From positions 128,500 to 192,499 of the forward strand of contig PNJU01000002.1 of assembly GCA_013822015.1 (NCBI GenBank): a stretch of 64,000 bases of DNA. Direction: 5' to 3'. Positions 16,391 to 18,286 of the stretch are shown here, piece by piece. A program made the position numbers and the translations under genes. The DNA comes from Candidatus Puniceispirillum sp. GTDB lineage: Bacteria; Pseudomonadota; Alphaproteobacteria; Caedimonadales; UBA1908. Under the pieces are notes generated by a model. The model saw nothing but the letters and a program-made list of their open reading frames with translations. It did no database searches and was not told where the DNA came from. Each line of letters begins with the position of its first letter. Position 1 is the stretch's first letter.

Positions 16391-18286
16391 ATGAGAACAA
16401 GTACACAGCATTTGCTCGACGTCATCCGCCCTCCCCGCGTACAAATTACGTACGATGTGGAGATTGGTGGCGCCGTTTCTTCCCGAGAACTTCCATACGT
16501 TCTCGGTGTCATGGCAGATTTATCTGGCCAATCACAGGTCGCACGCGTACCTCTTAAGGCACGCAAGTTCGTCTTGGTTGCTGGCGACTCTTACGCCGAC
16601 GTCATGGCGTCCATTGCACCACGTGTTGTGCTGCGCGTTGCAGACTGCATAAAGGGGGGTAACAACCTTCTTGGTGTTGACCTAACTTTTAGAACCCTTG
16701 ACGACTTTGAGCCAGCAAGCATCGTTGCAAACGTGCCTGCCCTTAAGGCCCTCATGGATAGCCGCACACGTTTGAACGATATGCTTGGCAAGCTTGACGG
16801 AAACGACGAGCTCAACAAACTTCTTGACGGTGTTCTTGCAGGTGGCGGTAAAGATAAGGTTGATCCCGCAAAGGTTGTCACTGACGGCAACATGGTGCGC
16901 GATCCATCTCAAGCTGACTACGCCAAGACATTGGTGCAAGAATTCTTGGATCAAGCAGGCAAGGAGAACTCCGTCAGTGGTGACTCCATTGCGCTTGTTA
17001 GCCAGCGCATTGCTGCCCTTGACGCACTGATTTCCTTGCAGCTTGACGCCATCGTTCACGATCCAGCTTTCCAAAAGCTAGAGGCTTCATGGCGTGGACT
17101 CTTCTTCCTTGTCACAACCATCGATGTCAGCTCACGCATTCAAATTCGTCTTTTGAATGTGACAAAGGACGAGCTACGTTATGATCTCGAGAAGGCCGTT
17201 GAGTTCGACCAAAGCAACCTCTTCAAGAAGATCTACGAAGAAGAGTACGGCACCTTTGGTGGCGCACCTTATTCATGCTTGATGGGTGACTTTGAGTTTG
17301 GCCGCACACAGGCTGATATGGCGCTTTTGGTGAAGATTGCACAAGTGGCATCGGCTGCGCACGCACCCTTTGTCTCTGGCGCAGGCCCAAACCTGTTTGA
17401 CTTGGATTCCTTCATGGATCTTGGCCTCCCACGTGATCTGTCAATCATTTTTGAGAACACAGAGCTCGGCAAATGGCAGTCCTTCCGTGAGAGCGAAGAC
17501 TCACGCTATGTGGCCCTTGCGCTCCCACATATCTTGATGCGCGCACCTTACGGACGTGACGACAATCCAGCCCTGGGTGTCAACTACCAAGAAACAGTGG
17601 ACGGCGTCAATAATGGCATGTTCTGCTGGGGTAACGCGGCGTGGGCTTTGGCACAACGCGTCATGAACTCGGCCACACTGTACGGCTGGCCAGCAGCCAT
17701 TCGCGGCGTTGAAGGTGGTGGACTTGTGGAAGATCTTCCTTACTACACCTTCAAGACAACGGACGGTGATGTGGCCCTCAAGTGCCCAACGGAAGTCGCC
17801 ATCAGTGATCGCCGTGAAAAGGAACTCAGTGATCTTGGTTTTGTGGCCCTGTGTCACTGCAAGAACCGCGACTACGCCGCGTTCTTTGGCAGCCAAACAG
17901 CGCAAAAGCCACTTCACTACAATCTGGATGAGGCCAACTCAAACGCTGCGTTGTCTGCGCGCTTGTCCTACATCCTGGCTGCCTCACGCTTTGCCCACTA
18001 CATCAAGGCAATCATGCGTGACAAGATTGGTAGCTTCATGAACCGAGGGGATGTTGAGCGCTACTTGAACAAGTGGATCTCTCAATATGTCTTGCTTACC
18101 GACTACGCTGACCAAGCATCCAAGACAAGGTTCCCTCTACGTGAAGCCCGTGTGGATGTGATGGACGTTCCTGGTAAGCCCGGAAGCTACAAGGCAACCG
18201 TGTTCCTGCGACCACACTTCCAGTTGGAAGAGCTCACCGCCTCCATCCGTTTGGTGGCAACCCTTCCTAAGCCAGCGTTGTTCTAA
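16391..18286 (+). CDS. Type VI secretion sheath protein, TssB (VipA)-TssC (VipB) fusion
   Basis: The N-terminal approx 150 aa read [32 protein letters not shown]...[28 protein letters not shown] (TssB). From about aa 185 the sequence reads [22 protein letters not shown]...[23 protein letters not shown]...AHAPFVSGA...[27 protein letters not shown]...FLRPHFQLE (TssC). One continuous ORF, with AGGGGGA RBS and ATG at 16391. Confidence 0.9.
   Translation: [631 protein letters not shown]

Follow-up and report, generated by a model that had tools for sequence, protein, structure and literature searches.

Can a type VI secretion system (T6SS) build its contractile sheath from a single polypeptide? 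Canonical T6SS loci encode the two sheath subunits, TssB (VipA) and TssC (VipB), as separate adjacent genes; the sheaths of phages and of extracellular contractile injection systems (eCIS) are single chains. In reviews, the T6SS sheath is described as a two-protein structure (e.g., PMC9230969). The question is raised by an open reading frame (ORF) in a 64,000-nucleotide stretch of DNA from Candidatus Puniceispirillum sp. (assembly GCA_013822015.1, contig PNJU01000002.1, positions 128,500 to 192,499), referred to here as the window, in which tssB and tssC are joined into one gene. An earlier reading of the locus, made from the letters alone (the sequence-only reading), had proposed a genuine in-frame TssB–TssC fusion that yields a single-chain sheath protomer. 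The profile searches, the homologues and the pattern of selection all agree with that proposal. The gene, here called tssBC, and its two parts are located as follows:

16391..18286, + strand: tssBC, one ATG-started ORF of 631 aa (stop codon included in the coordinates); fused T6SS sheath protomer
16391..16840, + strand: TssB-homologous part, residues 1–150; TIGR03358 match at residues 7–150; lacks the ≈36-residue C-terminal tail of stand-alone TssB
16871..18283, + strand: TssC-homologous part, residues 161–631; TIGR03355 match at residues 161–626, alignment with PDB chain 9n4v_A, Foldseek matches, dN/dS of 0.06

Pfam identified T6SS_VipA (PF05591) at residues 10–150 (E 1e-42), VipB (PF05943) at residues 205–505 (E 1.5e-121) and VipB_2 (PF18945) at residues 514–625 (E 9e-44). 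The NCBIfam equivalogs were matched well above their curated cut-offs: TIGR03358 (TssB) over profile positions 2–145 of 160, with 141 bits vs. a cut-off of 97.25, and TIGR03355 (TssC) over profile positions 7–473 of 473, with 642 bits vs. 271.5. There is no overlap between the TssB and TssC matches, both of which lie far beyond chance, and apart from the join both halves are full-length homologues. No phage-sheath Pfam family matched the ORF at E 0.01 or better. Thus, TssB and TssC do lie in one frame without a separating stop, both sets of profiles hit one protein side by side, and the first 160 residues carry a true TssB match, all as the sequence-only reading had it. Every hallmark motif that it quoted was found where it had been placed, at residues 16–46 (ending ADLSG), 98–112, 227–237, 272–291, 323–331 (AHAPFVSGA), 365–388 and 607–613 (RPHFQLE). 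Residues 1–150 do not have the form of a stand-alone TssB, which is ≈160–190 aa long with its own stop codon and a C-terminal tail. The exact protein sequence had no record in the assembly index, and a promoter and terminator scan of 15800..19800 gave fewer matches than shuffled sequence and nothing usable.

The fusion is not peculiar to one assembly. Homologues of 630–631 aa with the same architecture were found at 99% (P0001), 89% (P0002), 86% (P0003, locus L004) and 81% identity and below, in independent assemblies drawn from Logan, JGI, NCBI and ENA. The closest loci from GTDB species representatives each consist of one uninterrupted ORF: L004 (86%; an unclassified metagenome-assembled genome (MAG), “Alphaproteobacteria bacterium MCMED-G24”, JACESU01), L005 (71%) and L006 (63%; a Ca. 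Nucleicultricaceae MAG). Among the best 120 homologues, taken as 90%-identity clusters, 120 of 120 carry all three sheath Pfam domains, in proteins of 622–762 aa. We also searched 1.84 billion representatives of 50%-identity clusters, followed by hmmsearch with TssB and TssC profiles made from our own alignment. Of the best 150 representatives, 120 had TssB and TssC together in a single chain, and Pfam bore out this architecture on nine of them. Fused TssBC is abundant in public sequence data, and the rarity implied by the sequence-only reading did not hold.

Both halves of the protein are constrained. Compared with L004, the TssB part has a dN/dS of 0.10 and the TssC part one of 0.06, at a dS of about 1.4, which is saturated. 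The linker had a higher dN than both flanks, so that the junction evolves faster yet stays in frame. An alignment of 70 sequences contained 109 invariant columns, 15 in the TssB part and 94 in the TssC part, which take in known sheath core motifs. The tssBC fusion is under purifying selection and is common to more than 100 diverged relatives; it is a conserved trait of a large group of uncultured bacteria associated with protists.

The anatomy of the join was clearest in comparison with the best solved relative, the extended sheath of Azotobacter vinelandii (PDB 9n4v). Residues 2–151 of the window protein align with TssB residues 2–151 of the 187-residue chain 9n4v_B, and residues 161–629 align with TssC residues 22–491 of the 493 in 9n4v_A (659 bits), while residues 152–187 of 9n4v_B have no counterpart. 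From these limits, the TssB tail has lost ≈36 residues and the TssC N-terminus ≈21. Since TssC homology begins at about residue 161, by TIGR03355 as by the alignment to 9n4v_A, the linker comprises only ≈10 residues (151–160). The sequence-only reading had put the start of TssC at about residue 185 and the linker at residues 151–174, and both have to be revised. The join has two elements:

16841..16870, + strand: junction linker, residues 151–160, between the TssB and TssC profile matches
16871..16903, + strand: retained second half of the ClpV-helix region; aligns with ...LLDEIIAKGRMAHD... of split and long-linker relatives

In split relatives, in which tssB and tssC are separate genes, and in fusions with long linkers, TssC opens on a stretch of variable sequence, after which comes ...(S)LLD(E/Q)II..G(R/K)(M/L)ARD.SQ..YA.... 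ClpV binds TssC's N-terminal helix, and a peptide of enteroaggregative Escherichia coli TssC2, ATDDCLEEIINNTRA, binds the ClpV N-domain (PMC5048182). The LLD(E/Q)II region of the split and long-linker relatives corresponds to this peptide. With the ≈21-residue stretch, the first half of the helix region bound by ClpV has been lost, linker residues D-P-A standing in place of its LLD/LLE start, while the second half, I/V-x-x-G-x-M/L-x-R-D-x-S-Q, is conserved in the window protein. The ORF thus has no free TssC N-terminus with a complete ClpV-recruiting helix, and the claim that this terminus is gone was correct. Among fused homologues, the junction varies in sequence and in length, from ≈45 residues shorter to ≈300 residues longer than in the window. 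The longest forms have low-complexity linkers. In the shortest, of 529–539 aa, the VipA profile ends at about position 114, the VipB profile starts at about position 10, and there is no linker at all.

A monomer model of the window protein was calculated with AlphaFold2 from the 70-sequence alignment (mean predicted local distance difference test score (pLDDT) 73.6; predicted template modelling score 0.69). In a Foldseek search of the PDB, TssC chains were the best matches (E 8e-37 to 2e-22), and TssB chains were matched with E values down to 1.5e-5. The junction was modelled as a helix (139–150), a loop, and two further helices (159–165 and 172–189), with pLDDT values of 70–85. Values below 50 were found at residues 12–31 and 611–631 and in three stretches of the TssC part (435–454, 458–470 and 489–501). 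The first two of these regions, at the two ends of the chain, are conserved, the N-terminal one highly so:

16424..16483, + strand: putative N-terminal inter-subunit arm, residues 12–31 (TssB N-terminal strand and linker); pLDDT below 50 yet highly conserved
18221..18283, + strand: putative C-terminal inter-subunit arm, residues 611–631 (TssC C-terminal strand); pLDDT below 50 yet conserved

In the 70-sequence alignment, P15, V17, Y21 and V23 are invariant in the former, and S618, R620, V622, A623, L625 and P626 in the latter. In the sheath structures of Kudryashev 2015 and Wang 2017, the TssB N-terminal and TssC C-terminal arms reportedly interlace the subunits, and we take residues 12–31 and 611–631 to be these arms. 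Arms of this kind are expected to be poorly defined in the model because it is a monomer. The same structures are said to place the TssB C-terminus and the TssC N-terminus together in the outer, T6SS-specific domain 3, so that a short loop could connect the two proteins.

The resulting topology resembles that of contractile phage, R-pyocin and eCIS sheaths (T4 gp18, Afp/PVC), in which one polypeptide carries both arms and the core domains. At the family level, however, the window protein is unrelated to these sheaths. Foldseek matches to phage and eCIS sheaths (phiKZ, T4, PVC, Afp) were marginal (E 5e-3 or worse; TMq ≤ 0.22), and the single chain of the window is secondary, derived from a split T6SS sheath.

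We consider it likely that selection maintains tssBC as a natural gene fusion, whose product is the one-chain sheath protomer of a T6SS of the proteobacterial type (T6SS-i), and that the gene heads a tssBC-hcp-tssE module in an alphaproteobacterium related to protist-associated lineages of the Holosporales type. Our verdict is that the ORF is a real, functional variant of a known machine. The two knitting arms appear to be untouched by the join, so that polymerisation around the Hcp tube and contraction should proceed as in a normal sheath. The join, which probably lies in the outer domain 3, would restore the single-chain topology of phage and eCIS sheaths. A likely benefit would be an obligatory 1:1 stoichiometry and the co-folding of two mutually dependent partners where the T6SS genes are scattered.

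The genes that follow tssBC are consistent with such a module:

18323..18943, + strand: divergent hcp (tssD), 206 aa, 36 nt 3′ of tssBC; assigned by an hhalign profile match
18986..19480, + strand: tssE (gp25-like baseplate subunit), 164 aa; GPW_gp25 E 2.7e-9; TIGR03357 67.3 bits vs. a cut-off of 53.2

Pfam and NCBIfam gave no match for the 206-aa ORF. When a profile of its family, built from 14 loci, was compared with a canonical Hcp profile by hhalign, the match had a probability of 98.1% (E 6.4e-14) over 154 columns and spanned the whole length of Hcp. From this profile match, we identify the ORF as a divergent Hcp. An ORF of ≈190–210 aa occurs 3′ of tssBC in 11 of the 12 related fused loci examined (including L087 and L089–L091), and 3′ of tssBC or tssC in 14 of 18 Holosporales-type loci. 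Such divergence probably explains the published absence of TssD, the inner-tube gene, from the Holosporaceae. The tssE gene has the same position in the closest relatives (L004, L005, L006, L087, L089 and L090). It was not detected in the long-linker loci, of which L091 has the Hcp-like ORF beside tssBC. The tssBC-hcp-tssE module of the short- and medium-linker subclades (L004, L087, L089, L090) sits amid unrelated housekeeping genes. A small tssBC-hcp module apart from other T6SS genes and surrounded by housekeeping genes is found in the window and in L004, L087, L089, L090 and L091. Pfam and NCBIfam searches of the large ORFs and tblastn with Pseudomonas aeruginosa components revealed no tssA, F, G, J, K, L or M, vgrG or clpV in the 64-kb window.

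Compared with canonical T6SS-i (V. cholerae VipA/VipB; A. vinelandii 9n4v; P. aeruginosa TssB1/TssC1, 5n8n), the window protein gives orthologue-level matches and has the same predicted fold. As in canonical T6SS-i clusters, hcp and tssE adjoin the sheath gene. The window sheath differs in being one polypeptide rather than two, without the ≈36-residue TssB tail and the ≈21-residue TssC N-terminus and with the ClpV-helix region half eroded, and neither clpV nor the remaining core genes lie next to it.

The arrangement agrees with that of the scattered T6SS of the Holosporales, in which [tssB-tssC-hcp] is separate from [tssG-tssF], [tssK-L-M-A] and [ywqK-vgrG] (PMC8163844). The system of Ca. Bodocaedibacter vickermanii and other Holosporales/Holosporineae shares with the window a small module standing apart, a divergent Hcp, no listed clpV and a host-associated genome with eukaryote-like repeat proteins. 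In Ca. Bodocaedibacter, tssB (513 nt) and tssC (1455 nt) are separate genes, whereas they are fused in the window and in most of its clade. Among the relatives that carry a name, the nearest are MAGs with the labels Nucleicultricaceae, Holosporales, Holosporaceae and Paracaedibacteraceae. By protein identity, the closest locus belongs to the unclassified MCMED-G24 MAG (86%), and Nucleicultricaceae, Paracaedibacteraceae and Holosporaceae appear only at ≤63%.

The window contains several genes for repeat proteins of a eukaryote-like or conflict-type kind: a secreted-looking tetratricopeptide repeat (TPR) protein with a lysine-rich tail (13918..15945, − strand), directly upstream of tssBC on the opposite strand; an ankyrin-repeat protein (20804..22609, −); a STAND-type NTPase with TPRs (29864..32146, +); and a protein with an F-box and leucine-rich repeats (LRR; 60166..61941, −). 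These are candidate effectors or host-interaction factors, and the ankyrin, F-box/LRR and TPR genes fit a eukaryote-associated bacterium. A methyl-accepting chemotaxis protein with a C-terminal, c-di-GMP-binding PilZ domain is encoded at 11594..13600 (+), which is unusual given the host-associated appearance of the relatives. L004 has flagellar genes upstream of the module, and together with the chemoreceptor gene of the window, these argue against an extremely reduced symbiont. A 682-aa ORF (1947..3995, +) gave a sub-threshold match to the type IV pilus-related PA5441 family (102 bits vs. a cut-off of 300), and the large ORFs without a family match include 54617..56368, 37036..38664, 28381..29892 and 34394..35482.

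In a rough neighbour-joining tree of the TssC part, the alphaproteobacterial Holosporales-type sequences formed one large clade, the majority of which are fused. Six split members are interspersed in this clade (L009, L012, L032, L042, L062 and L080); L063 is truncated at its 5′ end, and its state was left unscored. Outside of the clade, fusions are sporadic, namely in P. aeruginosa PA99 and in a Planctomycetaceae MAG (L071). One old fusion followed by later fissions and several separate fusions both fit this tree. Among the split relatives (loci L007–L083), a single stop codon separates same-frame tssB and tssC in many cases, and loss of such a stop would give an in-frame fusion. The excess of same-frame pairs is not interpretable in itself, because ranking loci by tblastn favours single-frame matches. 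Split relatives have TAA or TAG stops, a ribosome-binding site and an ATG for tssC. We also considered recoding, in which the stop is read as sense in split Holosporales-type relatives. This idea was dropped because of the TAA/TAG stops, ribosome-binding sites and ATG codons at the junctions, and because the tssC ORFs have no internal stops.

P. aeruginosa PA99 and other isolates have a TssBC of 683 aa that, like the window protein, is encoded by one ORF. The two share 53% identity over their full length, and the only annotation of the 683-aa protein is “sheath large subunit”. Unlike the window protein, it is a simple read-through that keeps the whole TssB tail, a translated spacer and the complete TssC N-terminus, including the LLDEII helix and the start Met of TssC. 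This strain-level allele lies within a complete, clustered T6SS with clpV. The allele was found at L001 (10001..12052 of the locus; PA99, CP042967.1), L002 and L003, and the exact protein occurs on at least 24 contigs. The PA99 cluster reads sigma-54 activator, tssA, M, L, K, J / tssBC, hcp, tssE, F, G, clpV. Neither H4-T6SS nor H2, the latter suggested by gene order, is retained as a label for this cluster; it may be the rare H4-T6SS, but the H4 papers have separate tssB4 and tssC4 and do not mention PA99. The PA99 allele offers a natural test of whether ClpV can serve a fused sheath.

With the free N-terminus of TssC gone, the sequence-only reading had suggested that sheath disassembly may work differently here. 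No clpV was found within 6–10 kb of fused alphaproteobacterial loci at the 15 loci examined. In tblastn searches over 6 kb, none was found near split Holosporales-type loci, L009 excepted, and clpV lay no more than 6 kb from tssC at most split loci of free-living bacteria. Neither tssH nor clpV nor clpB is entered in the T6SS gene list published for the complete Ca. Bodocaedibacter genome (PMC8163844). With the ClpV handle eroded and no clpV linked to the locus, contracted sheaths are probably not recycled by a dedicated ClpV. A precedent is found in Francisella, an intracellular bacterium with a T6SS but no dedicated ClpV, where sheath disassembly is driven by the general disaggregase ClpB (PMC5481754). 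Its IglA and IglB are separate chains and distant from the window protein (237 bits to 3j9o_B vs. 659 to 9n4v_A). A general unfoldase such as ClpB may recycle the window sheath in a Francisella-like manner, though its part here is conjectural, or there may be little recycling. An altered disassembly or recycling of the sheath is plausible, as far as we can infer.

Several observations weigh against this account or limit its reach. The fused P. aeruginosa allele shares its cluster with clpV; the long-linker fusions retain the whole TssC N-terminal helix; and the conserved half-helix of the window protein could, from its sequence, serve as a recognition site. The structural evidence consists of a monomer model, which does not cover the assembly, and there is no experimental study of a Holosporales-type T6SS (PMC11909080). 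Fusion and ClpV loss are therefore separable, because the P. aeruginosa fusion has clpV and the long-linker fusions keep the helix. ClpV is missing from the window and from the vicinity of the fused alphaproteobacterial loci examined, but fusion alone does not imply ClpV loss. We read the loss of ClpV as characteristic of the Holosporales-type system and not as brought about by fusion; in the window's subclade, a ClpV handle eroded at the junction is in keeping with it.

The alternative that survives best is that the fused sheath is functional but that a dedicated ClpV, with its gene elsewhere in the genome, recycles it via the half-helix or another surface. The P. aeruginosa cluster shows that a fused sheath and clpV can occur together, L009, which belongs to the same alphaproteobacterial clade and is split, has clpV in its cluster, the window protein has conserved the I/V-x-x-G-x-M/L-x-R-D-x-S-Q segment, and the data for the source genome amount to 64 kb. 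These points have to be set against the failure to find clpV in the window or near the 15 fused loci, the gene list for the complete Ca. Bodocaedibacter genome, and the finding that ClpV threads TssC from its N-terminal region (PMC5048182), where the window protein has no free end. When the ClpV of L009 was searched against the databases, no Holosporales-named protein was among its best 120 relatives, which were ≤57% identical, bar one of 73% over 78% of the query, and came from Acidobacteria, Planctomycetes and others. This counts only weakly against a ClpV elsewhere and is by itself uninformative, because the ClpVs of all i1-type systems are about equally distant. On balance, we regard a ClpV encoded elsewhere as possible but the less likely case.

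It is considerably less probable that the fused chain is a precursor which is split again, by proteolysis of the linker or by internal initiation of TssC, so that the working sheath consists of two chains. Many homologues do have linkers of 60–300 residues that are low in complexity, rich in Ala/Pro/Ser/Thr and acidic residues and protease-accessible in appearance, and Met168 follows shortly after the junction in the window protein. In the window's clade, however, the linker is only ≈10 residues long and is predicted to form a short loop between helices, and the more compact fusions of 529–539 aa have no linker to cleave. Met168 is not conserved, being Leu in many close homologues, and no Shine–Dalgarno-like sequence was found ahead of it.

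Equally, we find little reason to believe that the locus is a decaying, non-functional T6SS remnant in a host-restricted bacterium, with the fusion as a tolerated lesion, and rate this as slightly more improbable still. The scattered T6SS genes, the very divergent Hcp, the partial deletion of domain 3 and the hallmarks of host association (ankyrin, F-box/LRR and TPR proteins) could be read in this way. Yet dN/dS is 0.06–0.10 at saturated dS, the 109 invariant columns include known sheath core motifs, and lineages as distant as about 55% identity still have the fusion and the tssBC-hcp core, joined by tssE in the closer subclades. The T6SS is moreover reported to be conserved in almost all Holosporineae genomes, including the smallest (PMC11909080).

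Finally, a sequencing or assembly artefact, with two neighbouring genes run together by a frameshift error or a missed stop codon, is effectively refuted: a single base error could in principle mimic a fusion, because the split relatives retrieved mostly have tssB and tssC in the same frame with 1–3 in-frame stops between them, but the window junction is not an intergenic read-through, since it lacks ≈57 residues of the split relatives together with their ribosome-binding site and their start codon for tssC, its DNA has no homopolymer run and no ambiguity, and the same compact fusion recurs in independent assemblies at 99, 89, 86 and 81% identity and below.

The natural fusion favoured here is one of a wide range of fused forms. 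N-terminal extensions of about 95–1070 residues ahead of TssB, whose match begins at position 95–1071, occurred in 33 of the 120 fused representatives of 50%-identity clusters, including P0165 (896 aa), P0173 (1644 aa, with WD40 repeats) and P0199 (1489 aa, with an FGE-sulfatase domain). The 887–896-aa form recurs on more than 35 contigs and is therefore not a one-off gene-calling error. An extension of the N-terminal arm should hinder the normal knitting of the sheath. At the other extreme, soil metagenome contigs (L084, L085) encode a compact TssBC of 539 aa (P0182), a cluster of 63 sequences on many contigs. Its gene (10001..11620) lies directly 3′ of a gene for a 1224-aa, NLR-like TIR/NB-ARC/APAF1_C/WD40 protein (6352..10026), with an overlap of 26 nt, and no Hcp, TssE or further sheath profile matches were found within 10 kb of it at either locus.

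A more far-reaching interpretation, which we put forward only tentatively and consider doubtful when all of its parts are taken together, is that the fused TssBC proteins make up an evolutionary series, so far unrecognised, along which the T6SS sheath goes back towards a phage-like single chain. The series would run from read-through fusions with everything kept, through long-linker and then short-linker forms such as that of the window, to the forms of 529–539 aa in which domain 3 is nearly deleted. In the Holosporales-type clade, the fusion would be the sign of a T6SS of protist symbionts that does without ClpV and is single-use or ClpB-recycled. The compact orphans beside TIR-NB-ARC-WD40 ATPases may be non-secretory, the sheath fold serving some purpose other than secretion.

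In spite of their abundance, the fused proteins have passed without comment. Their NCBI and JGI names are only “sheath large subunit” or TssC/“ImpC”, and the fusion is never flagged. Full-text searches for TssBC, TssB-TssC and VipA-VipB fusions returned no description of one, only papers on GFP tagging, botany or unrelated subjects, and the Holosporales T6SS papers, a Holosporales review, a T6SS review and a paper on sheath evolution do not mention it. Published accounts of the Holosporales T6SS treat tssB and tssC as separate genes, with fusion unmentioned (PMC8163844, PMC11909080). The suggestion that the architecture had not been described therefore holds for the literature searched, but not for the databases. 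Because the proteins are annotated as TssC/ImpC alone, genome surveys will score these genomes as lacking TssB.

What appears to be new, then, is a T6SS-i sheath whose subunits are fused and whose outer domain is trimmed, common in the databases and apparently undescribed in the literature that we searched. The split sheath, domain 3 and ClpV are seen as an adaptation of the T6SS for repeated firing, unlike phage tails. Natural single-chain sheaths with a graded loss of domain 3 amount to a comparative experiment on why the sheath was split, what domain 3 does, and how a sheath is recycled without the ClpV handle. The finding also bears on the least understood T6SS, that of intracellular protist symbionts of the Holosporales type, where the system is thought to be a key device for interaction with the host (PMC11909080).

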